A stretch of 55,570 nt of DNA, from IMG/VR virus record IMGVR_UViG_3300024257_000013, positions 1-55,570 of that record. One strand, written 5' to 3'. The DNA is from a virus (taxonomy: Duplodnaviria; Caudoviricetes). A program made the translations under genes and the position numbers. The notes below the pieces were generated by a model. The model was not told the DNA's origin and searched no databases. It worked only from the letters and a program-made list of their open reading frames with translations. Positions 2,493 to 35,917 of this stretch are shown piece after piece; the stretch's first letter is position 1; each line of letters starts with the position of its first letter.

Positions 2493-2497
2493 CCACC

Positions 2498-3052: not shown

Positions 3053-5082
3053 TGGCTTCTTCCATACCTTATGCGCAGACTGGTATATCCAATCTTAAAG
3101 CACCTGATCTGAGCAAAGCTGGAGATCTGTTTAATACAGCCCTAACTAAAGCTACTTCTATGGCAGAAACCGCTAAAGCTAATTTACAGGATGAACAAAA
3201 AGGATTATTTGCTACCGGGCTAAGAGAAGCCGGTAATCTGCAAGACTTGACAAATGTTAATATAGAAGGCTTAAGGCAGGCTGATTTAGACAGTGCTGCA
3301 TTACAGCAAGCTCAAGCACAGTTACAAGAACGCCAATTAGCATTATTAGGTACAGAGCTGCAAGGACAATACGATACTAGATTAGCTGAAAATAAACCCA
3401 TCGTTGAAAATATTCTTGCAAATAATCCTGCTATTGCAAACTTTGCAGGTGTAGATGAAAGTGGAACTATCAACTTTGCTGAAGGCACTACTCCAGAGCA
3501 AGAAGCACAATTCGGTGAACTGTTAAGACAATCTGAATTTGTTCCTGTACAGACAGAGCGTGAGTACACTAAAGGTCTTACACAGCGAGCTAAAACTGAA
3601 TTTAATGCTTCTGATGAACAGGCTAAAAAATTAGCTGCTGACCATACTGCGTACAGAAAAAGTTTAAATACTCTTACTTCAGAAGAAAATGCTCTGTATG
3701 TAGCAGAAGAAGTTAAACTGGACCAGGCATTGGCTCACGAAAGATTAGGTGCTGATAGACAGTTGGCACGGATAGAGAGAGAAACCAAGCATAATCCTAC
3801 TGAAGCACAAGCATTGTTGTCTATGAAAGCATCTACAGTAAAAGATACTGTTGATGAATTAGCTAATATAAGTTCTTGGAGGGACTTCTTTGCTGAAAGT
3901 GGAGAAAAGCTAAAAAGAACTATAGATGGTCTATACAAGAAAGGTGTTAACAATAATACTGTACAACCCTGGATGGTTGATGATGCTTTACGTACACTTA
4001 TCGACACAGCTCCTGATACAGGCAGCAAAGCTATAAACATAGACGATATGATAACGTTAATAGATGGTATAGCAAGAGATTCTGTATTGCAGCAAAACCT
4101 ATTAACAGCTGCTAACGCTAAAAGAGATATTGACCAAAACCTTCTTAACTCAGAACAGAGAACTGTTCAGGATAAAAAGAAAGCATTAGCTAGAATAAAG
4201 AAAGATGCTCTTATTAGAGATACTGCTTTTAATAGAGCAGCTTATAACCGTGTTCTAGATAAAGCTGTTGAGGCACAAAATAATGTTGTTGCTGATCCCG
4301 AAACTACTGGTGGAGCAAAAGCGTTTTCTCTGTTGGATACAGGTAACAAAAAACCTGCTGCAATTACTGCACCAATAACTGTTGTACAGAAATCAAGAAA
4401 AGATAAAATAAAAGCGGCTAATACTGCGGATTCTCCTCTAATTTTTAAAGATGGTGAGATAATAGGTATTGATCCTGACATAAACCAGTTCAATTTAATT
4501 AGTTTAGACCCAGAATTGCTATCCTTTATGTCGGATAAAGATGTAAATAATATAAGCAATGCCAGAGTAAAAACTGAAGTAAAAAGAATTAGGACTTCCT
4601 ATGAATATAGTAAAAATGTTGGTAACGATCTAAAAAAAGTAACAAAAGCTACTACTGACTTTATTGGAGATGTAAAAGACTTCTTGGTAACTCCGGATAA
4701 AGCTTATTCTAAAGCCGTAGAAGAAGCCCGTTTAAGAGGTGATACTACGAAAAATTCTGAAGCAAACAAAACAGGAACAATAGAAAGAAGCAGTTTTGAC
4801 CCTGAATTGAGACCTAAAGAAGAAGAAGAAGTTGTTGATCCTTTAACTCGTGCTGTAAATAAAGCTAGAAGACAGCTAGAAGACAGTAAAATAAGAAATT
4901 TACAAGAAGAATTAAAAAAGACTATAGACAGCAATTTAAAAGGCAAAGAAAAGGTAGACAGACTTAACATACAATTAGAGTTAACAACTCTTTTAGAAAG
5001 TAGAGATATAGCATCTAGAGTAAGTAGTGAGGAATTGCGTAAGCAAATTGATGCTGCAGAAAAACAATTAAAAACTGATTAA
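3052..5082 (+). CDS. Internal virion/ejection protein (N4 gp51-like position)
   Basis: 676-aa helical, Ala/Gln/Lys-rich ORF directly upstream of the vRNAP locus. Confidence 0.55.
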   Translation: MASSIPYAQTGISNLKAPDLSKAGDLFNTALTKATSMAETAKANLQDEQKGLFATGLREAGNLQDLTNVNIEGLRQADLDSAALQQAQAQLQERQLALLGTELQGQYDTRLAENKPIVENILANNPAIANFAGVDESGTINFAEGTTPEQEAQFGELLRQSEFVPVQTEREYTKGLTQRAKTEFNASDEQAKKLAADHTAYRKSLNTLTSEENALYVAEEVKLDQALAHERLGADRQLARIERETKHNPTEAQALLSMKASTVKDTVDELANISSWRDFFAESGEKLKRTIDGLYKKGVNNNTVQPWMVDDALRTLIDTAPDTGSKAINIDDMITLIDGIARDSVLQQNLLTAANAKRDIDQNLLNSEQRTVQDKKKALARIKKDALIRDTAFNRAAYNRVLDKAVEAQNNVVADPETTGGAKAFSLLDTGNKKPAAITAPITVVQKSRKDKIKAANTADSPLIFKDGEIIGIDPDINQFNLISLDPELLSFMSDKDVNNISNARVKTEVKRIRTSYEYSKNVGNDLKKVTKATTDFIGDVKDFLVTPDKAYSKAVEEARLRGDTTKNSEANKTGTIERSSFDPELRPKEEEEVVDPLTRAVNKARRQLEDSKIRNLQEELKKTIDSNLKGKEKVDRLNIQLELTTLLESRDIASRVSSEELRKQIDAAEKQLKTD

Positions 5083-5086
5083 TTAG

Positions 5087-8000
5087 ATGTCTACGCTATC
5101 TGACGATACTCAACTGTTTGACTCTATTCTTGCAAAAAAGCAAGATGAGTTATTTGATACAACTACTCAGAAACAAATAGATCTTGGTGCTGTACCTTAT
5201 AGGTCATTAGACTTATCTAACGTGCCTTATAACACAGTAGATTTGTCTAACGTCGAAGATGAACAGGTTGTTATAAACAATCCAAGAGAATTTCCTTATT
5301 ATCTTCACGATGCTACGGTTCAGACTGGCTTGGGGTACTTGGTCAATACTGCCGGTTCTCTTGTAAGTGGTGGTGGAACTCTTCTAAATTCTGTACTATC
5401 TTTTCCCAATATAATAGCTAATGCTGTTGGTGGTGAAGAAAGTGCCATGAATGTAAATATGTTAGATTTCTTTGACATCTTGGGAGATCATGCACAGTCT
5501 TTTACTGATAAATTTCATAACCCTCTTCTTACAGAAAAATTTCACAAAGATGCTACCCGGGCTTACCGCGATAACAGTGGAGCAGTAGATGTGCTGATTG
5601 GACTTGGTGGCTCTATTGTTAATAACCCTGCAGCATTGCCACAAGTATTTGGTCAGTCGTTTGCTACTATGGCAGCAATGGCCAAGGGTGGTAGTGCTCT
5701 TGCAATGGCCTATGCTGGCGTATTCGGTGATAGAGCACAGCAATCAATAGACCGCCATAAAAAAACACATAATGGATTAGAGCCTGATGGTGATGATTTG
5801 CGGAACATAATGATTGCTGCTGGCGTATCAGCTGCTATTGAAACTATCGAATCTAAGTTCTTGTTTGGTAAGTTAGGCAATGTAGCGAAAGCAGTTAAAT
5901 CTAAACAAACACTATTAGGTACAGCGGGGAATGTTGGTAAAGGCAGTACTGCTGAAAGTGTACAAGAATACTCAGCAGAATATTTAACAGAACTGTCTGG
6001 TAGAGGTGATACTGTTACAGGCCTACTAGACCCTGCATTGCTGGAAACTCCTGCAGTCAACGCAACTATTGGTGCTGGAGTAGGTGGAGGAGTAAAAGCA
6101 GTATCTGGAATTTCTGGAGGAGTTAAAACAGCTGCTTCTAAAACTCTTGATAAAGCATCAAAAGCAATAGATAAAGCTATAGAAACAAGCACAACTAAAC
6201 GTCAAGAAAAAGCTGTAGCCAGCAATGATTTTATAACTGCTGCAGAAGCAGCTATAGAAAAAGACACCTCTAAATTTACTACTTTCGAAGAACATAAAGA
6301 TAATCTCTCTTCTGTATTGGACCTGATAGACAAAGCCAATGCAGGTATTGACGCTACTGCAGAAGGAAGCAGTAAAGATGTAGATCGTATTTTAGAATTA
6401 AGCAGTAAAGTTAAAATACTTACCGATATAGCATTAGCTGTAAAGTCTGCAGAAACTACTGGTCTTACACCTAAACAGGCAGAAGAGGTTATTAACAACT
6501 CTAAAGATGTCTCTGCCGAAGTTAGTGAAGCAGCAGTAGCCACAGTAGTTAATACACTTAAAGCTGGTGGAGATGTAGAGACTAAAACCTTAAGCAGCAT
6601 TAAAGGGAATATATTTTTTAACGACTTATCTACTGAAGATAAAACAGTAGTTAAAACTTATGAAGAAGCTAGACAACAAGCTACCAGTGTAGGAGAAGTA
6701 AATAAAGATATTGTAGAAGGAGATCCTGTAAAAGGCTTTCTTGGAGTTAAGCAGTATAAACAAAAAGTAGCTTCTGCCATACAATCACAGAACTTTAAAG
6801 CATTAGTTAAGACAATGCAGGCATTGGTATCTTTTAGAGATAGCCAAGTATACAAATTAGAACATCCTCCTAAGGGGTATAAACAGCATGCAGCTGCATT
6901 TGAAAAACAGCTACGTTCTGAAATAGCCTTAATAGATAAACATATTGAGCTGTTTGATGCTCAAGCTAAAGCTTCTTTCAATAAGTCTCCTTTAGCCAAT
7001 ATAGCCCCTTCTAAGCCGTCTGAGCAAACAGACAAGCAATCACAAGCCAAACCTGAGAAGTCTGCTGAAACAGCCTCTAAAGAGCCAGAATCTAGCGATA
7101 CTGAGTACAATAAGAAGTATGATGCTTTATTAAAGAAAATTGAAGGTATAAAGTATCCAAAACTTAAAGCACATGTAACTAGTCAATTATCTCAAGTTAC
7201 TCCACAGAATATAGATGAATTTAATTCTTTAATAGATGCCTGGGTTAAAGAACGAGATGATAAAGCTAAACCAAAAACAAAGGCTGAGCCTAAAAAGACG
7301 GAAACAAAAGTTAAAGCAGAAAAAGCTGTTAGTACTCCTCTAGAATCTACTGGGACTAAAGAAGTAGTAACGCCTAAAAAATATAGACTGTTTCCTAATA
7401 AAGATATTTATGCAAATGCTGATCAAACTACAGCAATTGATTCACTAAAAAATTGGTGGAGTAACTTAACCACTAACCGTATTTTTATATTATCTGGCAG
7501 AGGTGGTACAGGAAAAACTACTGTAATAAGTAAAGCCATAAGAGAGATGGGTGTACCTGCCAGTGAAGTACAGTTTGCATTGCCTACGCATAAAGCAAAA
7601 CAGGTAATAAAAAATTCCGCTAAAGAATTTAGTAACTTTTCTACTATAGCTTCTCTATTGGGATTAGTACCTAGCAAAAAAGAAGGAGAAGATTTTAAAC
7701 AAGACTTAATGTTGTACGAAAATAGTGTAGAAAGACTACGGACTGAAGGTGTTAAGTTAATTGTGGTAGATGAGGCCTCTATGACATTGCTCAGTACTGT
7801 TGAGTCGTTATTAGATCTGGCAGAAGAGATACATGCACGCATTATCTTTATGGGAGATAATGTGCAGTTACCCCCAGTAGACAAGAAAGGCGATCCTAAC
7901 AAATTAGGTATATCTCCTGTATTCAGCAAACTGACCGGGTTTAGTAATCCATTAAGCGCAGATGTAGATTCTTCAAATACTGCGTCTTTGTACCAGCGTA

Positions 8001-9634
8001 TGAGACAACAAGGTGACTCACCTATACTGCAAGTAACAGACATCTTGGCAGATGCTGTTGAATATGTATATTCTACTATCCGTGAAGGAGCTAAATTTAT
8101 AAGGGGTAAAAGAAACCCTAATATTATTTTTGACGGTAAAGACAGCAAAACTGCACAAGGTACGGTTCTGTATAAATCAGGACATATTAATCCAATAATA
8201 GATGAATTTGTTGAAGAACACCTAGAAGACCAATTCAATGTAAAATGGATTAATTATAATAATGCTGCACATCAAAGTAGTAAAAACATAAGAGCCAGAA
8301 TACGGGCAAAACTGTTTCCGAATGACCCACATGCTGCCGATGTAGAAAAATATCCTTTTCTGGTAGACGAGCATTTAATGATTGGTGCTATTGCGTCTAC
8401 TTATAAAAATGGAGAAGTATCTGCTACTTCTTTGCACAACGGGGATGAAGTAGTTGTTACAGGGGAAACAAGACAAACTTATATAGATATACCAAAAACG
8501 GTAGGCAGCGGTACTTATATAGGCATACCAGTAGATTTGCTTCCTGTTTCAATTGACAGTAAGAATTATGATATTATTATAGGAAATAAGAATACTAAGA
8601 AAGCTTTAATAAAGCAGTTCTCCGCTAACCAGAAAAGGTATCCAGGAATAGCAGATAGTATAATTAGGGGACTGACTGAAGGATTAGGGCCAGCTTACAT
8701 AATTAATACACATAAGGCACAAGGCAGTACATATAAAACTGTATACGTAGATTACAGCAACATAACAGGAACTACGGGTTCACCGGTATGGGTAGACACT
8801 TTAAGATCTTTATATGTAGCCACCTCTAGACCTACTGACAAATTAGTTATGGTCGGCAATAAGCTAGAACTTGGAGTAGGTAAAACAGTTAATGAGATAG
8901 TCGGAGATACTTCAAAAACTAAAAGGGAAAAAGAAAAAGTTATAACTAAACCTGCAGGAGAAAAAAGTACTGTTCGTGTTGGTGATAAAGAAGTAGAAGT
9001 TACACTTACTGAAAAAATTGATGATAATGGTTCATTAGCGGTAACAACTAATGGAAAAATAACGTTACGCAAAGGAATTACAAAAGCTGAAGTTATTGCA
9101 CATATAACCGGTAAAACAGATTCTTTAGTCAGTAGACAGAAGAATGTAACCACACAGTATTTACTAGACAAATTTAATATCAATTTACCAGGTATCCTAA
9201 ATGCTTTACCGATTGAAACACTATTAGAGTTTATTGTTGCACACGAAGTTGGACACACTAAACAGAAAAACTTAACAGAAAAGTATCTTTCTGTTACATC
9301 ACAAGCTATTGCAAAAAGCTTTAATCTTGAAGATGCTAGTAACAAATATTTAGCTGATAGTGCTATTAAACTAGAAGCTGGTGCACACCGTTATGCCCTG
9401 CAGGAACTGAAACTGCTTACTAATACTAAACCGCCAGTAGTTTCTAAATTTGTAGATGAGTTAAGTCAAATAGATACTAGTAAGTTTGTTATTCCAAATC
9501 CTTCTGTCTATAAAAAGGACGCTAAACTATCTGCTTTTGCAGGTATTAGTAAGACCCGGTATAGTACTCTTATTGTAAAAAGTGATAATATATTAAGAGC
9601 TTTAAAACAGATGGTTGAGGAAGGTTGTGTCTAA
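5087..9634 (+). CDS. Large virion protein: vRNAP N-terminal-like region + SF1B (Dda/RecD-like) helicase + HExxH zincin-like motif
   Basis: Gly/Ala-rich hydrophobic N-terminus. Helicase motifs SGRGGTGKT, LPTHKA, VVDEASM, GDNVQLPPV, MRQ, THKAQGSTY and LYVATSR lie at ~7410-8860. HEVGH at 9242-9256. Confidence 0.8.
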   Translation: MSTLSDDTQLFDSILAKKQDELFDTTTQKQIDLGAVPYRSLDLSNVPYNTVDLSNVEDEQVVINNPREFPYYLHDATVQTGLGYLVNTAGSLVSGGGTLLNSVLSFPNIIANAVGGEESAMNVNMLDFFDILGDHAQSFTDKFHNPLLTEKFHKDATRAYRDNSGAVDVLIGLGGSIVNNPAALPQVFGQSFATMAAMAKGGSALAMAYAGVFGDRAQQSIDRHKKTHNGLEPDGDDLRNIMIAAGVSAAIETIESKFLFGKLGNVAKAVKSKQTLLGTAGNVGKGSTAESVQEYSAEYLTELSGRGDTVTGLLDPALLETPAVNATIGAGVGGGVKAVSGISGGVKTAASKTLDKASKAIDKAIETSTTKRQEKAVASNDFITAAEAAIEKDTSKFTTFEEHKDNLSSVLDLIDKANAGIDATAEGSSKDVDRILELSSKVKILTDIALAVKSAETTGLTPKQAEEVINNSKDVSAEVSEAAVATVVNTLKAGGDVETKTLSSIKGNIFFNDLSTEDKTVVKTYEEARQQATSVGEVNKDIVEGDPVKGFLGVKQYKQKVASAIQSQNFKALVKTMQALVSFRDSQVYKLEHPPKGYKQHAAAFEKQLRSEIALIDKHIELFDAQAKASFNKSPLANIAPSKPSEQTDKQSQAKPEKSAETASKEPESSDTEYNKKYDALLKKIEGIKYPKLKAHVTSQLSQVTPQNIDEFNSLIDAWVKERDDKAKPKTKAEPKKTETKVKAEKAVSTPLESTGTKEVVTPKKYRLFPNKDIYANADQTTAIDSLKNWWSNLTTNRIFILSGRGGTGKTTVISKAIREMGVPASEVQFALPTHKAKQVIKNSAKEFSNFSTIASLLGLVPSKKEGEDFKQDLMLYENSVERLRTEGVKLIVVDEASMTLLSTVESLLDLAEEIHARIIFMGDNVQLPPVDKKGDPNKLGISPVFSKLTGFSNPLSADVDSSNTASLYQRMRQQGDSPILQVTDILADAVEYVYSTIREGAKFIRGKRNPNIIFDGKDSKTAQGTVLYKSGHINPIIDEFVEEHLEDQFNVKWINYNNAAHQSSKNIRARIRAKLFPNDPHAADVEKYPFLVDEHLMIGAIASTYKNGEVSATSLHNGDEVVVTGETRQTYIDIPKTVGSGTYIGIPVDLLPVSIDSKNYDIIIGNKNTKKALIKQFSANQKRYPGIADSIIRGLTEGLGPAYIINTHKAQGSTYKTVYVDYSNITGTTGSPVWVDTLRSLYVATSRPTDKLVMVGNKLELGVGKTVNEIVGDTSKTKREKEKVITKPAGEKSTVRVGDKEVEVTLTEKIDDNGSLAVTTNGKITLRKGITKAEVIAHITGKTDSLVSRQKNVTTQYLLDKFNINLPGILNALPIETLLEFIVAHEVGHTKQKNLTEKYLSVTSQAIAKSFNLEDASNKYLADSAIKLEAGAHRYALQELKLLTNTKPPVVSKFVDELSQIDTSKFVIPNPSVYKKDAKLSAFAGISKTRYSTLIVKSDNILRALKQMVEEGCV

Positions 9635-9956
9635 ATCTAAATTATCTATAGAAGAATTGTTAGATGCAGGAGTACCTTTAGAGGAACTTTTAACTAATAG
9701 TAAACCTGTTGAAGTAAATGTAACTGTTGATACAGACAAGCTTTCTGCTACTATGCAGAAAACTTTAGTTGATAATATCAATACAGCTAAAACAATTCAG
9801 ACAACTGTTACTAAAAGTAACGAATTTAATAAAGATCTACTGCTTAAAGCTCTGGGTGTTCTTATGAAACAGAATAAAGATAAACAAGAAGTTACAGGAA
9901 TCAAAGTTATAAGAGATCAATATAATTTAATTTCTGAACTAGAGTTTATTCGTTAA
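9615..9956 (+). CDS. Hypothetical protein (start probably GTG at 9627)
   Basis: ORF overlaps the upstream stop; GAGGAAGG precedes the GTG. Confidence 0.55.
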   Translation: MRKVVSKSKLSIEELLDAGVPLEELLTNSKPVEVNVTVDTDKLSATMQKTLVDNINTAKTIQTTVTKSNEFNKDLLLKALGVLMKQNKDKQEVTGIKVIRDQYNLISELEFIR

Positions 9957-9990
9957 TGATTAATTATATACTTCCAGAGGATTATCTATT

Positions 9991-10392
9991 ATGAGTATCT
10001 TTAAATTCTTACAAGCTGCTATAACTCCTGTAGCAAAACTTATAGATGATATCCATACTTCTGATGAAGAAAGAGAATCACTAAGATTAGAATTTTATAA
10101 ATTACAGTTCTCCGTATTTGAAAAAACTATGGAGTACGAACAGCAATTATTAAAGAGTCAATCAGATATTATAGTAGCTGAAGCTCAAGGTAGTTCATGG
10201 ATACAAAGCAGTTGGCGACCTATAACAATGTTAACATTTCTTGTGTTAGTTGTTTTAGACTCGTTAGGTTTTTTACCTACCCCACTTGCTGAAGAGGCAT
10301 GGACACTATTACAACTCGGTTTAGGTGGTTATGTAGCCGGTAGAAGTATTGAAAAAATTACTCCTAAGATAGCGGATGCATTAAAAAAATGA
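9991..10392 (+). CDS. Holin (3TM / GTA-holin-like family)
   Basis: IVAEAQGSSWIQSSWRPITMLTFLVLVV...LLQLGLGGYVAGRSIEK signature with TM helices; AGAGG RBS. Confidence 0.8.
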   Translation: MSIFKFLQAAITPVAKLIDDIHTSDEERESLRLEFYKLQFSVFEKTMEYEQQLLKSQSDIIVAEAQGSSWIQSSWRPITMLTFLVLVVLDSLGFLPTPLAEEAWTLLQLGLGGYVAGRSIEKITPKIADALKK

Positions 10393-10829
10393 ACTATAAT
10401 CCAGATGACCATGACAACACTAATCGCAGAGAGAACATGGATATTATTAGTGAACTTCAAGCTGAGATACATACTATGCACGAAGAAGCTAAGAGAGAAC
10501 CTACATGGTTGCAGAAATATGGAACACTTGCTGTAGCAATAGTAGGATTTGTACTGCCAATGGTTGTAGGCATATCTGTAATGTTTTATAGAGTAGATGC
10601 AGTTGAACTTAGTAATAAAAGCAAAATCAGCAAAGAAACTGTTAAATTAACTTTTTCAAATATACACAGCAGACTTAGGGAAATACAAAAACTCCATGAT
10701 GCAGATAAAAATAGCCTGAACAGAACTATTAAAAAACTGGATGAAGTAGTCAATAAAAAATTAGATGTTAACAATAGTTTGTTAATGCAAATTGTCCAAA
10801 CTATGCCACGACCTACGAGACTTCCATAG
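10389..10829 (+). CDS. Single-TM, coiled-coil membrane protein (possible lysis accessory)
   Basis: One TM segment (TLAVAIVGFVLPMVVGISVMF) followed by a coiled coil; overlaps the holin stop. Confidence 0.55.
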   Translation: MNYNPDDHDNTNRRENMDIISELQAEIHTMHEEAKREPTWLQKYGTLAVAIVGFVLPMVVGISVMFYRVDAVELSNKSKISKETVKLTFSNIHSRLREIQKLHDADKNSLNRTIKKLDEVVNKKLDVNNSLLMQIVQTMPRPTRLP

Positions 10830-23414: not shown

Positions 23415-23730
23415 CTTGAATAAATAGCCTACCTCTAGATGTCTCCCATCGAAGATTCAAAAACGAAAATACATTCGTTTCATTAAATATAGGCGTTAAA
23501 TAAATAGCTTTTAACCGACAAAGATACAATATCTGTCTGTTATGTAACAACGTATATGGCCAATCAGAGTCAGTAGATCAGAGCACAGTATATTGAAATA
23601 AAAAGGTTAAAAACGTTAAATAAATAGTTATGTGCGAATAGTCGCTACGCGTCGTTAGATGGAGCTGTGTCTAGAACAAGCTACTATCCCGAACCTTGCA
23701 GTTTGAAAATTGCACATAACGTTAAATTAG
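23415..23730 (-). ncRNA. Candidate array of three stem-closed RNA domains separated by TATTTATTTAAC linkers
   Basis: Linkers at 23615-26 and 23495-506 are identical; 23415-26 and 23721-30 are variants. Each unit has complementary ends. Confidence 0.6.
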
Positions 23731-24392
23731 CCTAAAGACCAAGCAGTAGCTTCAGATTGTCTGCTTTGCAACATATCTAAATGTTTTTGTAAGTCGAAGT
23801 CTTTGTTATCGATACTGTCTGGTAATTTTTTCACAGTAGTTCTGGCACACATTTTTGGATTACGGTAATGAATTACACGGTTTTTACCTTTAAGTTCCAA
23901 AAATACAGACTCATCAACTTCAGAAAGTATTCCACCTTTCTTACCATAACTTCCACCAGCATTAACCAGTGAGTAGCCAACAGTATCTTCGTTGTATAAG
24001 GCATGTGATACCAGAACAACATTAAAAGCATCAGCCAGGTCCCTTTCGATGAAATCGACAAATTCTTTAATTTCTGTATTAATTTTTCCATAAGGAAAAG
24101 ACTTAATAGTTGCCAGACAGTAACCTTCAATATCTAATAAAATTTTGGATATTGAATCAATAGCTACTGTTTTTGGTAACTCACCCATTTTGTTTTCATA
24201 CTTTTCAACAGTATTTGAGATTATATCGATAAGTTCACTGACTGATGTGTAATCAGGAACATTGATATGAGGTTGTGCAAAAGGGTATTTTTTACCGTCT
24301 CTTGCGATTACCAGGGTGTCTGTTAAATTTTGTAACAGGGTTGTTTTACCGATGGCCGGAAGAGCTGCTACCAAAAGTTTTACATTGCTCAT
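23727..24392 (-). CDS. AAA_24 / Sak4-like ATPase (N4 gp44-like)
   Basis: Walker A ALPAIGKTT, Walker B VAIDSIS, VLVSH. Confidence 0.8.
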   Translation of the reverse strand: MSNVKLLVAALPAIGKTTLLQNLTDTLVIARDGKKYPFAQPHINVPDYTSVSELIDIISNTVEKYENKMGELPKTVAIDSISKILLDIEGYCLATIKSFPYGKINTEIKEFVDFIERDLADAFNVVLVSHALYNEDTVGYSLVNAGGSYGKKGGILSEVDESVFLELKGKNRVIHYRNPKMCARTTVKKLPDSIDNKDFDLQKHLDMLQSRQSEATAWSLG

Positions 24393-27756: not shown

Positions 27757-28497
27757 TTAGGCATCACTAAACTCCTCTATATGTTGTTCTAAATCTTTAT
27801 CACTAAAGTTTCGTTTACTGCTTGAGCCTGTAGCAATAATAAATTCTTCTCTTCTTATTGCAGCTATTAAAGCAGTTTTAAAATACCCACTGAATATTTT
27901 CTTTTTCTTTATAGAGATTTGCGCTACCCAAGAATTTTTTAAGTGTCTTATTCTTTTAGGTCTACTCACTCCTATATACCCAGAGGTATTTGTAGTCAGT
28001 AGTAATTTACCTGTATTAGACTCAGTACGTTTTGCAGTATTATTAGTTGTATGGGGTAGGTTGTTATCACGTACATAGGTATCATAAGCTTGAGCAGCTT
28101 CTTTTATACAGTCGTAGTACCCTACTTTTATTACCTTTGATTTTACGCTTATTGACACCTCCCATTTACTGTATTTCTTATTCCAGCTAACTCCTCTATA
28201 TCCGGATTTATTATGGGAATAAAGAATTCTAGTATTTGAAGATTGAACTATTTGGTTTGTCCATCTGCAGTTATCTGGGCAGTAGTTATCATTATTATTT
28301 TTTCTATCTATAGAAGAATTTTCGTTATAATTATTAGATAAAGCCCAAGATTTAAAGGCTAAATAAGAATTTTTCCATTCTGTACAAACTTCAATATTTT
28401 TATAAGTTTTTTCGTATTGTTTTGCTCTACACCTATTTTTCATGCCTTTCCAAATATTATGAAGTCTAGTATCAGTATCCCCGTGAATTTCTCTCAT
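27757..28497 (-). mobile_element. Free-standing HNH homing endonuclease with two AP2 domains
   Basis: RLHNIWKGMKNRC...SIDRKNNNDNYCPDNCRW (HNH); NKSGYRGV and NTSGYIGV AP2 repeats. Confidence 0.85.
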
Positions 28498-29152
28498 TTT
28501 TATTGATGTGCTCTTCTAATTGTTCGTAAAGTAGTATTGTAGCACATCCATCAGTAGCTGCATACATAAGAAACTTAGGATCTCTTAAATTTTTAGGTTC
28601 GTATGTGTCAAATAAAGACCATGCAGGCAGGTAGTGATCTCCAACAAGTTCTTTCAGTCCAACCTTTGCTTTCCATATATCAACATGGTTAACAAAAGTT
28701 TTAGCTAACAATTGAGTATCTTCATAATTCTTCGGAAATTTCTTTACCCGGTGATACATCAGTTTAAGATCAAACAAACTGTTGTGGACAATAATTAACC
28801 CTTCATATTTGGCTAACCAGTTCCATATAATCATTTCTACTGCCATGTTTTCGGCAATAAGGACAACACTCTCGCAGTCACTGATACCAAATATAAAATG
28901 TGTAACAGTTACCAGCGAAGGAAAACTTAAACCTGAACTATTAACTACCTGCAGTGATAACTTTTTATTTTTTAAACTGATTTTAGGATTTTTCAGTAAA
29001 AGTTTAGCTTCTTTACGTTCTTCTTTGGAGTACACACTACGAGTTTCTGTGTCAAAACTGAGCATAATGTGCTCTTCAAGTTGTGCTAATTTTTGACGAA
29101 TAAACCAGGGTGTCGAATATACTTCGTAGGATACTTCTATAAAATCATTCAT
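28472..29152 (-). CDS. DNA polymerase A 3'-5' exonuclease domain (separate ORF)
   Basis: ExoI FDTET, ExoII HNSLFD, ExoIII YAATD. Confidence 0.85.
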   Translation of the reverse strand: MNDFIEVSYEVYSTPWFIRQKLAQLEEHIMLSFDTETRSVYSKEERKEAKLLLKNPKISLKNKKLSLQVVNSSGLSFPSLVTVTHFIFGISDCESVVLIAENMAVEMIIWNWLAKYEGLIIVHNSLFDLKLMYHRVKKFPKNYEDTQLLAKTFVNHVDIWKAKVGLKELVGDHYLPAWSLFDTYEPKNLRDPKFLMYAATDGCATILLYEQLEEHINKNERNSRGY

Positions 29153-29255
29153 GATTTATATATTCCAAATAATAATAGCTACAACTAACCAGAATAAAGG
29201 AGTATAAAATCCTAATTCTCCTAAGATAGGCTCATGTGAAGGTTCCATGCTATTG

Positions 29256-29639
29256 TTATAATAACCTGTAAGCATGAACAGAAGTTCTGTGCCAAATACA
29301 CTCTCCTGCTTTTCTTCGCAGTACTCTTCCAAATTCGGCTTCTCTTCCTACTATGTAACTCCTGCAACCAGACATATCCAGTATTTCAATTTCTGTATCG
29401 ACAGATACTGGAGGAAATTTCATATTAGGTGTGACAACTACCCAGGGGTGTTTCTTTTTAATTTTTACAGGCCATTCTTTACCAGAATAAATAGCATACA
29501 TCTTTGCAGCTGCATTTAAATAAGCAACCTGGTTCTTGCCTTGAAACATCATTTTTTTGGCTATGTCTTTCCAGGGTAGCCCAGAAACTCTTAGTTCATA
29601 GGCTTTTTCACCTACAATATTTTCAACACGTTGTTCCAT
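29256..29639 (-). CDS. Hypothetical protein, possible N-terminal HTH
   Basis: AYELRVSGLPWKDIAKKM is helix-turn-helix-like. Confidence 0.5.
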   Translation of the reverse strand: MEQRVENIVGEKAYELRVSGLPWKDIAKKMMFQGKNQVAYLNAAAKMYAIYSGKEWPVKIKKKHPWVVVTPNMKFPPVSVDTEIEILDMSGCRSYIVGREAEFGRVLRRKAGECIWHRTSVHAYRLL

Positions 29640-29704
29640 TCAGCTTATGGCTCCTATCTCTGTTTCCTGTAAAACTTCATTGCTATACTCTTCTGGTAAA
29701 TTCA

Positions 29705-29971
29705 TTACTTAAATCTCTTAGCTCGAATTTCTTTTAAACACTTAAAATAATATCCTCTAAATTTTGGATGCTCTTTATATTCATTAACAGTATGTTCTAC
29801 CGGAGTACCTTTACCCCATAAATAAGGATGTGCTATTGCAGGATATTTTTCTATTGCTTTTCGGTAAGCATACTGTCTTTGGTTTCTGTGCATCTCAACA
29901 AATCTACCTTTATCGGAGTACATAGGTCTTCCGTTTTGGATATTAAGACGTTTAAATTCTGATTTACTCAT
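29705..29971 (-). CDS. Hypothetical basic protein
   Basis: 88-aa ORF in the operon direction. Confidence 0.5.
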   Translation of the reverse strand: MSKSEFKRLNIQNGRPMYSDKGRFVEMHRNQRQYAYRKAIEKYPAIAHPYLWGKGTPVEHTVNEYKEHPKFRGYYFKCLKEIRAKRFK

Positions 29972-29994
29972 AGTTTATTTACCAATAATCTCTG

Positions 29995-30846
29995 TTAACA
30001 AGCACTAGCCAACTTGTGCAATTCATCAGCGGCAAGTTGAAAACCGGCGGCATGTTTATGTCCACCACCACCAAATAAAACGGCAATTTTAGACACGTCC
30101 TGTCCACCTTCTTCTGAACGCAAACTAAAGGTCCTGCCTTCTGCTGTATCCCAGTAACATGCCGCAAACGGTTCTTTCTCAGCCATAATATGACCCGCAT
30201 CACTACTGAAAAAATAAGGAGCATTTAAAGTGGGTACGTCAAATCCAGCTATAGTGCTTCTCGTTGCAGCCACTTTTATCAGTTCTTTAATATCCTTAAA
30301 GTGCTTTCTTTCAATGGCTTCACCAGCACCGATAAACGACCAGTATTTATAATCATCAGCACATAGGTCATCAACCATATCCCAATTTTCAAACGTGTAT
30401 TCCATACTGAGTAAATTCGCCTGAAAAGCGCGTGTTTGCTCCATTGAAAACCGCCATAAATCACGATCCTGAACATGTTTAATTAAAAATGGTGGTTTAG
30501 TATCTGGGTGAAAATATTCCCATGCCATCATTGCTCCACTTCTATCCATATCGAAGTGGATAGTAACATTTTCTGGCAAATCAACCAGGTCGGCTTCAGC
30601 ACTTTTATGGTGATCCAGAATTAATACGGTTTTAGCCTGTTTTGCTATCTCTAGTAACACTGGGCGCTTATAGCTAAAATCAACCATAATTACATCACGA
30701 CCAGTACAAGCAGGTGGTTCTTGACCGTAAATGCCTGGGTGAAATTCTGTTCCAGGGTGCTTTTTACGCACTGCCCAAGCAGCGGTAAACCCATCAGCAC
30801 AGTTACCATGATAAATACAAAGTTTTTTCATTTTATGTTTCTCCAA
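29995..30846 (-). CDS. DHH/DHHA1 family phosphoesterase
   Basis: YHGNCADG, VDFS, LDHH, DRDLW, FSLRS, GGGGHKHAAGF. Confidence 0.9.
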   Translation of the reverse strand: MEKHKMKKLCIYHGNCADGFTAAWAVRKKHPGTEFHPGIYGQEPPACTGRDVIMVDFSYKRPVLLEIAKQAKTVLILDHHKSAEADLVDLPENVTIHFDMDRSGAMMAWEYFHPDTKPPFLIKHVQDRDLWRFSMEQTRAFQANLLSMEYTFENWDMVDDLCADDYKYWSFIGAGEAIERKHFKDIKELIKVAATRSTIAGFDVPTLNAPYFFSSDAGHIMAEKEPFAACYWDTAEGRTFSLRSEEGGQDVSKIAVLFGGGGHKHAAGFQLAADELHKLASAC

Positions 30847-30854
30847 ATCGGCTC

Positions 30855-30942
30855 TTATAACAAGCCATTCTACCGGAGCGTTTCACGCTCCTCGTTTATG
30901 CCATTAGGCCAGTGCTGCGCCCGGTAAATTCAATCGTTAGAA
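30855..30942 (+). other. attC-like recombination site 1
   Basis: R'' TTATAAC, 5-nt spacer, ATT(C)TACCGG(A)GCG ... CGCCCGGTAAAT, 6-nt spacer, R' GTTAGAA. Two extrahelical bases at the canonical positions. Confidence 0.75.
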
Positions 30943-30947
30943 AGACT

Positions 30948-31949
30948 TTATAGTCCTTGCTTAATTTTGAGTTTCCCACCACCTAGAATCGCATTACCGC
31001 AAGTGATCAGGCTATCTTCTTCGTCTTGCGATGGTATAAATACAAGGGTATCGAACCCGGCCCCCTTACAGCTCTCCTCCGGCTCTGTATAAGGGGTGTA
31101 AGTTTGGTAACCGTCTACTGTCTGTATGCCATTCTCCATACAGGCTGAGTTGTTATGTATGGGCGTTATTTTCACCATCCATTTTTCAGTGTCAAAAAGC
31201 TCGGCGAGTTTTGCGCCGTCAACTTCATTCCCTGATGCGTAAGCTATGTTCAGGCAATACTTTCTACCGATAGGTTTTTGAATATTTTCGAGATTCTTTG
31301 CAATATCAATAAGGGTGTGACTGCTGCCACCAAACATCTGTTCACGCTGTACCTCTGAGCTGCTGTTGATACTGATCTGTAAACCTGCCTGACCTTTGAA
31401 TAGCTCGTTTTTTATCTTCACCCATTCGTGGATTCGATTAAATGTGTGCTTATAGTCAGGGCACATTGTTGTGAAAACAGGGTGAATAACTTCAATCCTA
31501 ACGCCTGTCTCATCTTGAATTTGACGCTTATGCTCCCCTAGCCACTCAGAAAACCTCAAAACGTCCTGATTGAAAACCGGCTCACCCATTCTAGCAAAGT
31601 GGATATTTAGCCTGTCAGTGTATTTCACACTATCATAGGCATTTATCCCCGCGTAAAACTGAGCCTTTAAGTCGCTGAAGCTGACGTTCCCTGAGAACTT
31701 GATATTTGGCACATCACAAAAAGTACATTTCATTACGCACCCGTACTGAGTAGAGAGAGTTATTACCCACTTCTCCTGTAGCGGCATTATCGGCCCATTT
31801 TCTACACCATTAAGTGGGCGCGTATACCCAAGGAAATCAGCCTTTATGTTTTTATGTTTCCCGTAGTCGCCTATTGAAAGCGTCTCTAGTTTGCCGTTTG
31901 AATAGTCATCAACAATCAAGCATCCTGTCGGTAATAGAATTTTGCTCAT
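30948..31949 (-). CDS. Radical SAM enzyme, RlmN/Cfr-like
   Basis: STQYGCVMKCTFC (CxxxCxxC), RMGEP, QISINS, C-terminal TCG. Confidence 0.85.
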   Translation of the reverse strand: MSKILLPTGCLIVDDYSNGKLETLSIGDYGKHKNIKADFLGYTRPLNGVENGPIMPLQEKWVITLSTQYGCVMKCTFCDVPNIKFSGNVSFSDLKAQFYAGINAYDSVKYTDRLNIHFARMGEPVFNQDVLRFSEWLGEHKRQIQDETGVRIEVIHPVFTTMCPDYKHTFNRIHEWVKIKNELFKGQAGLQISINSSSEVQREQMFGGSSHTLIDIAKNLENIQKPIGRKYCLNIAYASGNEVDGAKLAELFDTEKWMVKITPIHNNSACMENGIQTVDGYQTYTPYTEPEESCKGAGFDTLVFIPSQDEEDSLITCGNAILGGGKLKIKQGL

Positions 31950-31971
31950 TTCATTTCACCAAATAAAAAGC

Positions 31972-32099
31972 GCCTAACAAATCGATCCAGCCGACCGGCT
32001 AGGACAGCACTTTTTTCACTTTCAATGCTTTCGGTTTCTACTTTCATACTCTCAATACCTCTTTTATTAATACGCCGTCTGCTGTTTAAGGGGTTATGA
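31972..32099 (+). other. attC-like recombination site 2 (overlapped by a 33-aa minus-strand leader ORF at 31946-32047)
   Basis: R'' GCCTAAC, 5 nt, GAT(C)CAGCCGACCGGC ... GCCGTCTGCTGTTT, 5 nt, R' GTTATGA. Less perfect than site 1. Confidence 0.6.
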
Positions 32100-32101
32100 C
32101 G

Positions 32102-32314
32102 CTATAAGCTATCAATAATTTGCATCAACTTAAATCCGTCTTCGGCGGATTTGCACCAGACTGGAATATCAATATTTCCAAGTCTATGAGTGCAGCATCT
32201 TCCATCAGCAGATACATAAAAAGTCGGAATATTATCTCTAATCAATTGCGACTCTCGAATAGCTTTAAAAAGTGCTGGCTCTTTCTGCTGTACTATTGTG
32301 TTTAAATCACTCAT
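32102..32314 (-). CDS. Hypothetical protein
   Basis: 70 aa, overlapping the upstream stop. Confidence 0.5.
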   Translation of the reverse strand: MSDLNTIVQQKEPALFKAIRESQLIRDNIPTFYVSADGRCCTHRLGNIDIPVWCKSAEDGFKLMQIIDSL

Positions 32315-32589
32315 TTTAAATCCTTAGTTACTTTTATATGAATACTTGGAATACCTTCAAATAGCTTTGATATACGTTCCGCAGAGGCTTCTAACTCCTG
32401 CAGGCTAGTGCTAGTATCAGTTCTTAGTAATAAGTCTGCCAGGCTCTGTATAGCCCCTTCTAGAGACCCATACCAGCTGATAGCTGTCCAGGTATCTTCG
32501 CCTTCTTTATCTTTTCCGCGTTTGCACACCATCCAGGATGAACTATCACTCTTAATAGCGTGTTTATCGTCTATAATCATTAAATTCAT
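32311..32589 (-). CDS. Hypothetical phage protein
   Basis: 92 aa with GAGG RBS. Confidence 0.55.
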   Translation of the reverse strand: MNLMIIDDKHAIKSDSSSWMVCKRGKDKEGEDTWTAISWYGSLEGAIQSLADLLLRTDTSTSLQELEASAERISKLFEGIPSIHIKVTKDLK

Positions 32590-32660
32590 CTTTTCAAATC
32601 CTCAGTAGTTTCACTGCTTGTACAGGCTTATTCCCAGTAGATACGGTACCCGTCAGCTGC

Positions 32661-33077
32661 TTATGGTTCCAATAGACCATCTAAGTCTGAATTAAAAAAT
32701 GTTCCACTGATATTCTCATTTATGAAATCAGGATCAAATAAAGCATCATGGTGCATCAATAAGGCCACTTCCAGGTAGGTAGCAGCTTTCTTAGTGCTGC
32801 ATTGATATAAAATCTCTTTAGAGACTGCCTTCAGGCCCTGTGTAAGCTCGCTAGAGCCTTCATACTTGGCAAAGGGCAAATCCACCCATTCTTTACGAAC
32901 GTAGTTCTTACGCTTAGACAGCTGCTTCTTTGTCGGTTTTAGTCGCCTTATAGCTCGAACACTTTTTTTACCGATATACATACGCCCACAGGCATAAGTG
33001 ATCAGGTACACAAAATCAGTACAACCGGTAAGTAAATCGGCATGAGAATCTACTGGGGTACCATTGTAAATCCACAT
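32661..33077 (-). CDS. GIY-YIG family endonuclease
   Basis: FVYLITY...MYIGKK, YEGSS, conserved E and N. Confidence 0.7.
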   Translation of the reverse strand: MWIYNGTPVDSHADLLTGCTDFVYLITYACGRMYIGKKSVRAIRRLKPTKKQLSKRKNYVRKEWVDLPFAKYEGSSELTQGLKAVSKEILYQCSTKKAATYLEVALLMHHDALFDPDFINENISGTFFNSDLDGLLEP

Positions 33078-33712: not shown

Positions 33713-35917
33713 TTAAACTCTCCGTAGTGCAGGTGTGATAAGCGTTCTCTTTAAGCGGTCTTTGTCCATTGATTCCATCCAGTAGTCGTTAACTTCATGA
33801 GCCAGCTTTTCTATGTATTCTTCATCAGCTCCCAGGTCAATAGCATACGCTAATGCACGGTATAGTAAAATAGACCGTTCTCCAGGTTCTGCAGTAAAAG
33901 CAAATGAGAAAGTTTCACGAGGATCAGCTAACTTATTGTTTTTTTCTTTAGGAGGTAATTCTGAAGGAAGCTTTGGCTTGTTACGTAAACACTCACTGGC
34001 ATTTTCCAGTAAATATTTAGTTTTAAGTGTAGATCCATCCAATTGCTCAAGAATATTTCTATCAGCAAATGAGAAGAATATCTGACTTTGAGGAAGACTA
34101 TCTACAACCAACCCAAGCTCTTTTCCAATTTCCTGGATAAATGCTTTCCACAGTTGTGGCTCTATATCGACGATAGAATCCAGTTCCAGCAAAACTCTGA
34201 ACTTAAATTCATTCTCAGGATCACTTGTACGGGCAACATAATGGTTGTACTCATTGAGTAATACATGCACCTCTTCATCAGTGATGTACGACTTATCTAT
34301 ATCGAGAACAACAAATTTGGTACCGCCTTGAACATTGTCTTTACCACGTTTTCCATCAGCAAACACAAATGGACCATAAGCAGCATTATTTTTGAGCATA
34401 TCTCGCATTTCAGCAAAATCTGTATCATAGACATCAAAGCCATCTTTACAGTTCCTGGCCATATACTCTTTAAGCTCTTCCCCTTTCAGGTCAGTATCTT
34501 CAAAGAAAATACAAGATACACCGATTTCATCGGTAATAATTTGCTCATCGTATTGAATACCGTTTTCGTGAACTGTGTAACGTCCACCTTCATCGTAACT
34601 GTTTGCCAGTTTAGCCAATTCCTCTACTTTGCTTTTCGAAGAACCGGCACCAGTAACATATGATAACTTTCTGAGTTCATGTAATGACAAGAAGAAAGAA
34701 CTATCTTCAGCTTTGTAGCTGCACATATCAGCCAGTTGCTCATAAGGCTCTTTTACAAGTTCCTTTTCAAATTCACTGAGTTGTGGTGCCAGTAGTTCAA
34801 CGGTATTGATAGCATAGGCATACATTTCCTCATTAACGAATTCTCTGCCGTGCAGAATTGCATACGTACCGGCTAACTTAAGGGCTAACCACTGCTTATG
34901 CTTTCTACTTAGTTTTGATATTGGGTACTTATTCGATTGATCATCAGATATAAAATTGTTGTACTCCAGGTAAACATCAAATAACTTAGTTGCTTCCGGG
35001 GTTAACGTAAGAGGTTCCTGGGTGGTAGTTTCAACCAAACCAGAAGTTAGATGGCTCAATGCTTCCTGTGCAGCTAGTACACGTTCACGTTCCTTTTCTT
35101 TCAGTTTGTAGAGTTCATCAATGGAGGAAATTTCCAACCGTGTAGGAACTTCAGGTGTGAAAGTAAAGATACTTCTACGTGCCAACTGGGTATTGAATAC
35201 CAGTTTAAATTTTGATTTGATTTCATTATTAAACAGCAGTGCTTCCTGGGAACCAAAGAACAAAGCGTTCACCGGTAACCCCTTAATTGCTTGAGTCTGA
35301 TTTTCAGAAGACTTAACAATTTTTGGAGCAACATTTCCTAGATCGTAAGCTTGCGAAATTATTTTAATAATATCCGTCATAGCTCCATTGGTCTGAAGCT
35401 CAGAACCAATTTCCGATGTAGTGATACTGCCGGAACCTAATGGGTTCTGCCCGATATCAGCAAAATGATGCAGTAAGCCTTCAACAGTACCTAATCCGGC
35501 CTGTAACGGTTTTGGTTCAACGTAGAACATCTTCCATTCATGCTTACCTTTTCCTTCCAGCTTGGCCTTATTTTCGGCTTTAACTTTGGCATACTCTCTA
35601 CGTTCATCTTCGATCTGCATATAGCCCATATCGAGAGACTTTCGAATAGTATTCAGGGATTTATCTTTTGACATACCTGATCCAGCCAAAGCAAATACAA
35701 TGGCGTTAGTAGGAACTAACGTACCATCGTACAGCTTGATAGGTTTTCTCAGATGTGATGAAAAAGTAATAAGCTCTGCCAGTGTAATCGCAAGTTTTAA
35801 CTTAAACGGAATCTCACCAGCTATAGTATTAATTCCTTTCTGTACAATATCGGGAAAAGGTCCAATATTGCCTGTACGATCTTTTATGTAGTTGTCTAAG
35901 AGCTTGAAAGTATCCAT
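33713..35917 (-). CDS. DNA primase (N4 gp43-like): N-terminal P-loop-like domain + C-terminal AEP-like primase
   Basis: LAGSGMSKD P-loop-like motif; VLDID, RTS, KFRVLL, SQIFF primase-like motifs. Confidence 0.7.
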   Translation of the reverse strand: MDTFKLLDNYIKDRTGNIGPFPDIVQKGINTIAGEIPFKLKLAITLAELITFSSHLRKPIKLYDGTLVPTNAIVFALAGSGMSKDKSLNTIRKSLDMGYMQIEDERREYAKVKAENKAKLEGKGKHEWKMFYVEPKPLQAGLGTVEGLLHHFADIGQNPLGSGSITTSEIGSELQTNGAMTDIIKIISQAYDLGNVAPKIVKSSENQTQAIKGLPVNALFFGSQEALLFNNEIKSKFKLVFNTQLARRSIFTFTPEVPTRLEISSIDELYKLKEKERERVLAAQEALSHLTSGLVETTTQEPLTLTPEATKLFDVYLEYNNFISDDQSNKYPISKLSRKHKQWLALKLAGTYAILHGREFVNEEMYAYAINTVELLAPQLSEFEKELVKEPYEQLADMCSYKAEDSSFFLSLHELRKLSYVTGAGSSKSKVEELAKLANSYDEGGRYTVHENGIQYDEQIITDEIGVSCIFFEDTDLKGEELKEYMARNCKDGFDVYDTDFAEMRDMLKNNAAYGPFVFADGKRGKDNVQGGTKFVVLDIDKSYITDEEVHVLLNEYNHYVARTSDPENEFKFRVLLELDSIVDIEPQLWKAFIQEIGKELGLVVDSLPQSQIFFSFADRNILEQLDGSTLKTKYLLENASECLRNKPKLPSELPPKEKNNKLADPRETFSFAFTAEPGERSILLYRALAYAIDLGADEEYIEKLAHEVNDYWMESMDKDRLKRTLITPALRRV

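Follow-up and report, generated by a model that had tools for sequence, protein, structure and literature searches.

Positions 29995-32093 of a 55,570-nucleotide viral record, IMGVR_UViG_3300024257_000013 of IMG/VR (the whole stretch is called the window below), are a two-cassette cluster of attC sites lacking an integrase (CALIN), of a type in which gene polarity is reversed. The cassettes carry an inverted DHH-family phosphoesterase gene and an inverted radical SAM gene; their sites match attC covariance models, the same gene family lies in the attC arrays of other phages, and the predicted cassette edges are real junctions. Integrons are bacterial gene-capture devices, and bacterial cassettes have recently been shown to hold many anti-phage defence systems; the phage of the window appears to trade accessory genes as bacterial integrons do. 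Overall, we assign a probability of about 0.6 to the whole reading, namely that of a two-cassette phage CALIN whose edges are used as junctions and which is shuffled by a host integrase.

attC sites and covariance models

Sites 1 and 2 occupy both intergenic gaps bordering the radical SAM gene, in a neighborhood where all genes lie on the minus strand. Site 1 (88 nt; 30855..30942, plus strand) reads R″ TTATAAC (30855-30861), a 5-nt spacer, ATT-C-TACCGG-A ... CCGGTA-AAT, a 6-nt spacer and R′ GTTAGAA (30936-30942), with the C and the A extrahelical on the plus strand. This geometry, 7+5+3+1+6+1 ... 6+3+6+7, is that of 29 aligned class 1 attC sites; all 20 model pairs of the site are standard, and the bulged C and A fall in canonical columns. 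Site 2 (about 128 nt; 31972..32100, plus strand; R″ GCCTAAC, R′ GTTATGA) combines a canonical 5′ half with a degenerate 3′ half, on which side three to four pairs are broken. R″ and R′ are complementary at six of seven positions in site 1 and at five of seven in site 2, with AAC and GTT intact in both, and some R/Y positions of the consensus boxes (R″, RYYYAAC; R′, GTTRRRY) deviate. The central loop of site 1 also holds a 7-bp GC-rich terminator-like hairpin followed by a T-rich tail (30875-30891, plus strand), which lies on the strand antisense to the genes and competes with the attC stem for two G residues.

Covariance model R1 was trained solely on class 1 sites. Using IntI1 of plasmid R100, we fetched 80 class 1-type integron loci and took from them 29 distinct attC sites with canonical boxes and single-hairpin folds, the alignment of which has 91.7% of cells paired and strong covariation. 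Searching both strands of the whole window with filters off, R1 ranked site 1 first (30855-30942, plus strand; 35.6 bits, E 4.8e-7) and site 2 second (31972-32100, plus strand; 16.4 bits, E 0.039), each over the full model length. The search returned five matches at E<=10, the remaining three at 7.8-8.9 bits and E>3, and none on the opposite strand of either site. Model R2 was trained on 20 phage-borne sites, none of them from the window, and scored site 1 at 42.6 bits and site 2 at 18.7 bits (E 0.069). The next R2 match in the window, at 13.8 bits and E 0.82 (23714-23812, minus strand), lies 7 kb off and is probably chance.

Controls of R1 were run on loci with and without integrons. In 81 integron loci the model made 120 matches at E<=1, of which 119 fell on the expected strand, and sites outside the training set scored 18-74 bits. 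Applied to 63 viral loci plus the window (645,519 bases), R1 made 11 matches: two in the window, six in viral locus L021 and three in viral locus L050. These two loci carry arrays, and the other viral DNA, about 590 kb in all, was otherwise silent. Among published phages, R1 found one site in TJE1, six in MW202573 (L172; 2069-3739) and none in PH101 or P12002L (NC_029094, NC_028924), yet four attC sites of the latter pair have, in the published text, been recombined experimentally. R1 is therefore narrower than published pipelines, so its silence is weak evidence of absence, and attC models trained on class 1 sites overlook some phage sites that work in experiments.

Given these scores and controls, the observation made in an earlier reading of the sequence alone is real: site 1 has canonical attC geometry at the coordinates above, site 2 is attC-like and more degenerate, and the covariance check proposed at that time puts both at the top of the window in R1 and R2. 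Site 1 is a good attC, and site 2 is a degenerate attC with a canonical 5′ half. As a cluster, the window holds two plus-strand sites 1,030 nt apart and no intI, the second site being borderline. The exact cores of sites 1 and 2 occur in no other IMG/VR contig.

Cassette edges and junctions in natural populations

Each R′ box contributes one cassette edge at its G|TT point (30936|30937 for site 1 and 32093|32094 for site 2), and the remaining edge is an outer GTT at 29994|29995. Predicted cassette 1 (29995..30936, plus strand) comprises the inverted DHH gene and site 1 up to the G of its R′ box, as judged from the layout of attC, ribosome-binding site and open reading frame (ORF) and from branch points at both ends. 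Predicted cassette 2 (30937..32093, plus strand) comprises the inverted radical SAM gene and site 2 up to the G of R′. This is the segment that the sequence-only reading had proposed as a cassette, and the proposal is borne out at both edges: contigs from seawater branch at 30939/30943 and at 32093, and the right edge is also where 100% identity with an unrelated phage contig, L174, ends. The arrangement of attC followed by gene in cassette 2 recurs in L050 and in a metagenome locus, L148. The proposed outer left junction is a GTTAACA box (29994..30000, plus strand; crossover G(29994)|TT) sharing bases with the TAA stop of the minus-strand DHH gene, a stop-codon-in-box arrangement also seen in L050 and L148; neither R1 nor R2, run over the window, found an attC beyond it.

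The junction in L174 came to light through a 70-amino-acid ORF of unassigned function (32102..32314, minus strand) that adjoins the array. A search with this ORF led to L174, a phage contig with a GpA-type (lambda-type) terminase, which is 100% identical to the window over the 210 nt from 32302 to 32093 and has nothing else in common with it; five tested L174 proteins have no relative in the window, and L174 carries no attC. Read along the gene strand, the identity continues through TCATAAC and no further, which places the break at the G of the site 2 R′ box (GTTATGA; 32093|32094); past it, L174 runs into its terminase gene. We considered L174 as an ancestral empty site and rejected it, since what follows its junction is no closer to the window sequence after 29994 than chance would give (scores as high came from 2048 of 5000 shuffles and from 1483 of 5000 random 30-mers of the window).

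Evidence from natural populations extends to all three predicted junctions. Of the sampled words of the stretch 29600-32700, 92-99% are found in each of 20 metagenome runs of seawater or marine origin, which belong to 20 studies; five of the runs may be the source, and studies sharing year and habitat may be one campaign. Logan contigs of four runs (X6, X7, X18 and X20) were mapped on this stretch, and none spans it. Breaks fall at 29994/5, 30838/30850, 30939/30943, 31971/2 to 32001, 32032-32084, 32093 and 32273-32302; all four runs break at 29994/5, 30939-43 and 32093, and different partners appear as loose ends in six of the 12 run-by-junction combinations. At the left junction, X6, X18 and X20 show other sequence before 29995 or 29994, in two different versions. 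The L174 junction before 32093 is present in contigs of X7 and X18, and X20 has another partner there that ends like the 3′ half of an attC. One partner past 30943 encodes an ORF whose TAA stop falls in the R′ box. Natural populations therefore do branch to other DNA at each of the three predicted G|TT junctions.

The attC units themselves also occur in other company. In metagenome contigs, sites 1 and 2 each adjoin the starts of other ORFs, the 102-nt unit of site 1 (30838-30939) is joined to other sequences on both sides, and X6 holds a variant of site 2 with a canonical 3′ half. A 210-nt contig spanning 32093-32302 is present in X7, X18 and X20, and a 271-nt contig of X6 likewise ends at 32302. 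The L174-type identity stops 12 nt inside the 70-amino-acid ORF, beyond which all four runs share one alternative sequence that gives this ORF a different N-terminus; the joint at 32273-32302 is a mosaic and is not linked to attC.

Depth of the radical SAM contig relative to the backbone flanks was 9.8 versus 29/24.5 in X6, 36 versus 69/65 in X7, 15 versus 21/19 in X18 and 14 versus 40/40 in X20, while the DHH unit and the unit of the 70-amino-acid ORF lay mostly above the flanks (the ORF unit was about level in X6). Contig depth is not copy number, so we use these figures solely as a hint of presence/absence polymorphism, here that part of the population lacks the radical SAM cassette.

The junctions bear on how the array was assembled. 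The sequence-only reading had cassette 2 inserted into an existing attC, citing a crosswise fit between the R boxes of the two sites. The fit is the same in cis and across sites (6+5 of 14 matches either way) and thus carries no information. From the end of the attC to the start codon there are 22 nt at the radical SAM gene (site 2) and 20 nt at the DHH gene (site 1), and because attC sites end just before start codons, each site is assigned to the gene it precedes, site 2 to the radical SAM cassette and site 1 to the DHH cassette. Site 1 accordingly reads as the attC of the neighboring DHH cassette and not as an older, split attC. Insertion into an existing attC is not supported; the outer junction is just a GTT, and the nearest relatives lack attC altogether. 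Seven primase-related loci hold no attC, DHH gene, radical SAM gene or 70-, 88-, 92- or 127-amino-acid ORF, the Alteromonas phages PT11-V19 and R22Y have no attC, and a search with the 88-amino-acid ORF found no relative. The relative with an empty single site that had been suggested as a check therefore appeared neither in these searches nor in that of IMG/VR with the site cores.

A leader ORF had also been proposed, coupled to the start of the radical SAM gene. This 33-amino-acid ORF (31946..32047, minus strand) overlaps that start (ATGA), lies within the variable loop of site 2 and is doubtful, probably no gene. Library scans gave it no family match; the homologous place in L050 has no ORF of at least 40 amino acids, and no ATG was noticed in the upstream stretch there. 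The alternative joins of site 2 at 31971/2 in other genomes likewise bear against it. As a peptide precursor we rejected it, for want of a family match and of conservation.

Recurrence, gene polarity and genomic setting

The closest homologue of the radical SAM protein (83% amino acid identity) is encoded in L050 (IMGVR_UViG_3300026519_000012), a 64.7-kb viral record that is rated complete and holds no IntI. Directly upstream of the homologue lies an attC array with matches between consecutive small genes at 3868-3973, 3429-3528, 2977-3063 and 2217-2316 (15.7-31 bits, filters off) and three weaker ones. Eight small genes after an SSB gene accommodate these four clear and three weak sites (900-5000); two of these are 100-nt copies that are almost identical, a uniformity known from chromosomal integrons, and a class 3 lipase-like gene follows the radical SAM gene.

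We ran R1 on 17 of the 21 metagenome loci with a radical SAM homologue and on two Alteromonas phage loci, leaving out L147, L151, L154 and L160, which are the same contigs as L049, L050, L051 and L056. L148 (73% identity) contains six attC sites with default filters and ten with filters off, including one at 3332-3401 just upstream of its radical SAM gene. L149 has one site, and L153 has a 14-bit match (E 0.38); the remaining scanned metagenome loci, and L049, L051, L052, L054 and L055, gave no R1 site. An attC thus lies near the radical SAM gene in four independent contexts (the window, L050, L148 and L149) of about 25 distinct loci, made up of nine viral contigs including the window and 17 further metagenome loci. 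The homologues in the arrays of L050, L148 and L149 are 73-83% identical in amino acid sequence, and DNA similarity among these contexts is limited to the coding sequence. In the window, L050 and L148, a gap of 21-27 nt separates the end of an attC from the radical SAM start codon downstream of it, and in both L050 (15.7 bits) and L148 (22.2 bits) a weak match occupies the place of site 2. An alignment of the regions upstream of five radical SAM homologues is poor, and its sole recurring feature is a GTTA-type box about 20-28 nt before the start.

Reversed polarity unites these arrays: in L050, L148, L149 and L172 (filters off), the genes run antisense to the top strand of the attC in 20 of 20 matches. 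We then asked which ORF of at least 50 amino acids ends within 12 nt of a box. The class 1 set for this test comprised 77 of the 120 matches, after repeats of the same site and most rows under 31 bits were dropped; 41 were canonical (a top-strand ORF ending at R″), one was reversed and 35 had no ORF end in range. Among 13 sites of the window, L050, L148 and L149, twelve were reversed (a bottom-strand ORF ending at R′) and one was ambiguous (114 versus 106 amino acids). The inverted orientation of the radical SAM gene noted in the sequence-only reading is confirmed by this test. These arrays depart from the usual cassette rule of a promoterless top-strand ORF ending at or before R″, and the TAA stop of the upstream gene often falls within the R′ box, in a 6-nt overlap. 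In the published CALIN of the Myoviridae phage MW202573, all annotated genes are on the plus strand and all six R1 matches on the minus strand; its ORF-end test was mixed, with one reversed, two canonical and three without an ORF end. The consistent reversal suggests a cassette pool adapted to phages and not borrowed from bacteria.

A complete integron is present in L021 (IMGVR_UViG_3300001199_000021; 7058-10781 and 7819-8781), a 38.8-kb viral record that is rated 94% complete. Its IntI scores 466 bits, over the cut-off, and is 54.5% identical to IntI1, with six to seven attC sites flanking it on both sides. A relative of the window's DHH phosphoesterase gene is found in L021 too, with the integron about 1.3 kb downstream of it. 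Polarity in L021 is mostly canonical (two canonical, one reversed, three without an ORF end).

The radical SAM gene (30948..31949, minus strand; phrog_24834, E 1e-102) encodes 333 amino acids with a CxxxCxxC motif at C71/C75/C78 and an RlmN/Cfr-like fold. Sequence matches to RlmN/Cfr entries of NCBIfam and PDB are weak, with NCBIfam scores of 18-28 bits against cut-offs of 290-633. An AlphaFold2 model (predicted local distance difference test score 86.5) has RlmN, a Sphaerobacter RlmN-like enzyme and Cfr as top Foldseek matches, at template modeling (TM) scores of about 0.5-0.6 and 13-16% identity. Cysteines C71, C75, C78, C270 and C317 are invariant; the two mechanistic cysteines of RlmN are C118 and C355. 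Relatives number 5,235 at E<=1e-5 in a large protein collection, some of them named RlmN by the Joint Genome Institute. The family occurs in eight viral contigs and 21 metagenome loci, and in one of 400 scored genomes of one bacterial class, at 31% identity. A role in nucleic acid methylation would be a guess. The DHH-family phosphoesterase gene (29995..30834, minus strand) matches phrog_4771 (E 1.4e-104), with a Pfam DHH/DHHA1 match under the cut-offs, and has relatives at 34-62% identity in 48 viral loci of unrelated contexts.

The host phage of the array is an uncultivated N4-like marine phage, and the array sits in its variable early/replication region. The primase gene of the window (33713-35917, minus strand) encodes a protein 65-66% identical to those of the Alteromonas podophages vB_AmeP-R22Y and PT11-V19. 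Because a giant virion RNA polymerase gene is present in the latter, we take the phage of the window to be N4-like. Next to the primase gene lies a SegE-type GIY-YIG-like gene (32661-33077, minus strand; Pfam PF19835, E 7.5e-15), an adjacency found in seven of seven primase-related loci, and a 92-amino-acid ORF (minus strand) separates this gene from the 70-amino-acid ORF. On the other side of the array, 88- and 127-amino-acid ORFs (minus strand) lie between the DHH gene and a DnaQ-like exonuclease gene (28472-29152, minus strand), beside which a 246-amino-acid ORF (27757-28497) looks, by eye, like an HNH/AP2-type homing endonuclease. The 3.5-kb block from the exonuclease gene to the GIY-YIG-like gene (29152-32661) is missing in seven of seven primase-related loci. 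In six of the seven these two genes follow each other directly, with 5-725 nt between them, which marks the region as a hyperplastic spot in this group of phages.

Host integrase, rival explanations and known systems

On the gene strand, each cassette reads attC, about 20 nt with a ribosome-binding site, and then the gene. The attC bottom-strand sequence is on the gene strand, the opposite of the arrangement in ordinary integron cassettes. In the proposed mechanism, a host integron integrase would cut and rejoin the folded strand of sites 1 and 2 while the phage DNA is single-stranded during infection, and the phage, without an enzyme of its own, would gain, lose or swap single accessory genes.

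The statement of the sequence-only reading that the window has no integrase holds: the 55.6-kb source contig has no tyrosine recombinase match (TIGR02249, 0 candidates), and tblastn with IntI1 over the window gave nothing better than E 3.8. The intI, attI and cassette promoter (Pc) that accompany the array in a complete integron are absent from the record, which is a genome fragment, so an integrase may lie elsewhere in the phage. With none in the record, we infer the use of a host IntI, which is plausible. An IntI over the family cut-off occurs in 148 of 401 sampled genomes of the class of genome G004, a tally that includes the unpublished genomes G043, G145, G300 and G312. According to the published text, IntI1 recombined five of six tested phage-borne attC sites (Qi et al. 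2023, PMC9892861). As the text of a preprint has it, integron integrases also insert cassettes at genomic GWT sites (10.1101/2022.09.11.507474), and insertion of this kind would fit the bare GTT found at each outer junction, in the window and in L174.

Several observations weigh against this reading and bring in its rivals. The record offers neither integrase, attI nor Pc, and no recombination was observed directly. No relative with an empty site turned up. Site 2 scores below most true attC sites and under the 20-bit cut-off that the text of Qi et al. (PMC9892861) gives for their own, different model. Neither strand of either site folds better than its shuffles (z -0.7 to -1.1, and +0.4), and the predicted probability of the attC fold is about 0.003 for sites 1 and 2, against a class 1 median of 0.36, which counts against an efficient reaction; this fold is not the predicted minimum-energy fold and lies 2.6-2.8 kcal/mol above it. 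Other phage-borne sites span attC-fold probabilities from 3e-7 to 0.37. The ordinary z-scores, together with the terminator-like hairpin in site 1, a loose scan for R/L-box geometry (two matches versus 1.45±1.17 expected in 100 Markov simulations, too loose to inform) and the absence of the 3.5-kb block in relatives, had initially led us to read the sites as chance inverted repeats. The R1 scores and controls overturned that reading. Chance repeats or terminator hairpins arising in two intergenic regions are now highly improbable, given model scores and E-values with clean negative and positive controls, the recurrence of sites beside homologous genes and the exact L174 junction.

There are two further rivals. 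In T4-type phages, promoter-stem-loop modules (PeSLs) mediate modular shuffling, and attC-like repeats common to co-infecting phages may similarly serve as portable homology on which homologous or microhomology recombination swaps genes without an integrase. Branch points do flank each attC unit (30838/30850 and 30939/43; 31971/2 and 32093), the units of sites 1 and 2 are joined to other ORFs elsewhere, one breakpoint (32302) lies within the 70-amino-acid ORF, and the attC-fold probability is low in a phage without an integrase. The contig branches on the R″ sides, inside site 2 and at 32302 count against the host-integrase reading: the enzyme acting alone predicts none of them, and they fit either attC units repeated with other genes, as happens in chromosomal integrons, or homologous exchange. 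One left-junction partner, moreover, has C instead of G before TT. We nevertheless regard homology-driven shuffling as unlikely. Partners at the L174 and left junctions have at most the invariant G/C of the box in common, and hence no homology to recombine on; strand-specific attC anatomy (bulged bases, 5- and 6-nt spacers) is kept, which homology alone does not require, and site 1 scores 35.6-42.6 bits on one strand with no match on the other. Somewhat less credible still is a passive relic, in which a piece of a bacterial array was acquired once by illegitimate recombination and its attC sites have since become inert passengers. In its favor, site 2 is degenerate, the attC fold has a low probability, and the nearest relatives lack both attC and integrase; the near-whole, stable arrangement across the 20 runs also suits a relic and speaks against active shuffling. 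Set against this, the radical SAM family is rare in the scored bacterial genomes compared with viral and metagenome loci, the reversed polarity is common to four phage-type arrays and rare in class 1 cassettes, and all three predicted junctions are polymorphic in nature.

Shuffling of phage genes by host integrases, if true, would be a new route of phage genome evolution and would tie bacterial defence cassettes directly to phage accessory genes at the molecular level. A broader proposal, possible though doubtful, is that a pool of reverse-polarity cassettes circulates among unrelated virulent and temperate marine phages that borrow host IntI, forming an exchange network of accessory genes. 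If so, the cargo, such as the DHH phosphoesterase or the RlmN-like enzyme, may serve in counter-defence; with reversed polarity, the strand that recombines would be the gene strand, and reversed cassettes would be silent when landing in a bacterial integron.

Clusters of attC sites in cultured phages are already known as a kind, having been published in 2023: the text of Qi et al. (PMC9892861) reports 17 CALINs and three integrons in 10,705 genomes. As described there, phage CALINs resemble the window in having at least two attC sites within 3 kb and no intI, and virulent marine phages are included. The window belongs to another lineage, N4-like, in which the Alteromonas phages with a 65-66% identical primase lack attC. 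Its cargo is a radical SAM enzyme and a DHH phosphoesterase, whereas theirs is methyltransferases, and it offers natural junctions where their sites have bench assays. In their main text, figures and supplements aside, the words "opposite" and "antisense" do not occur and genes on the bottom strand are not mentioned, nor did that text yield a repeated link to the radical SAM family or junctions from natural populations. As far as a limited literature check goes, the reversed polarity of the genes and the evidence of natural junctions look new. The window adds an uncultivated yet widespread seawater phage with an attC array, and natural populations give evidence that unrelated phage backbones are joined at the edges of cassettes.

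Among the other systems, the gene cassettes of mobile and sedentary chromosomal integrons, served by IntI, attI and Pc, have in common with the window the R″/L″/L′/R′ anatomy, two bulged bases, the G|TT crossover, the presence of one or two genes in each cassette and the occurrence of a gene in more than one array. In contrast to them, the window lacks IntI, attI and Pc, its ORFs are inverted, the attC precedes the gene on the gene strand, the stop of the preceding gene lies in or next to the R′ box, and the central part of the site is poorly paired. PeSLs of T4-type phages are likewise short structured intergenic repeats that bracket small accessory genes in a hyperplastic region and are shuffled between phages, but they consist of a promoter plus a hairpin and act via homology, without R/L boxes or a site-specific crossover. 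A parallel to the outer junctions is attG, with the consensus GWT in the text of Loot and co-workers (10.1101/2022.09.11.507474): the outer junctions of the window (29994-29996) and of L174 are plain GTT with no attC or attI alongside. Theirs are insertions into laboratory E. coli chromosomes, whereas here the target would be phage DNA.

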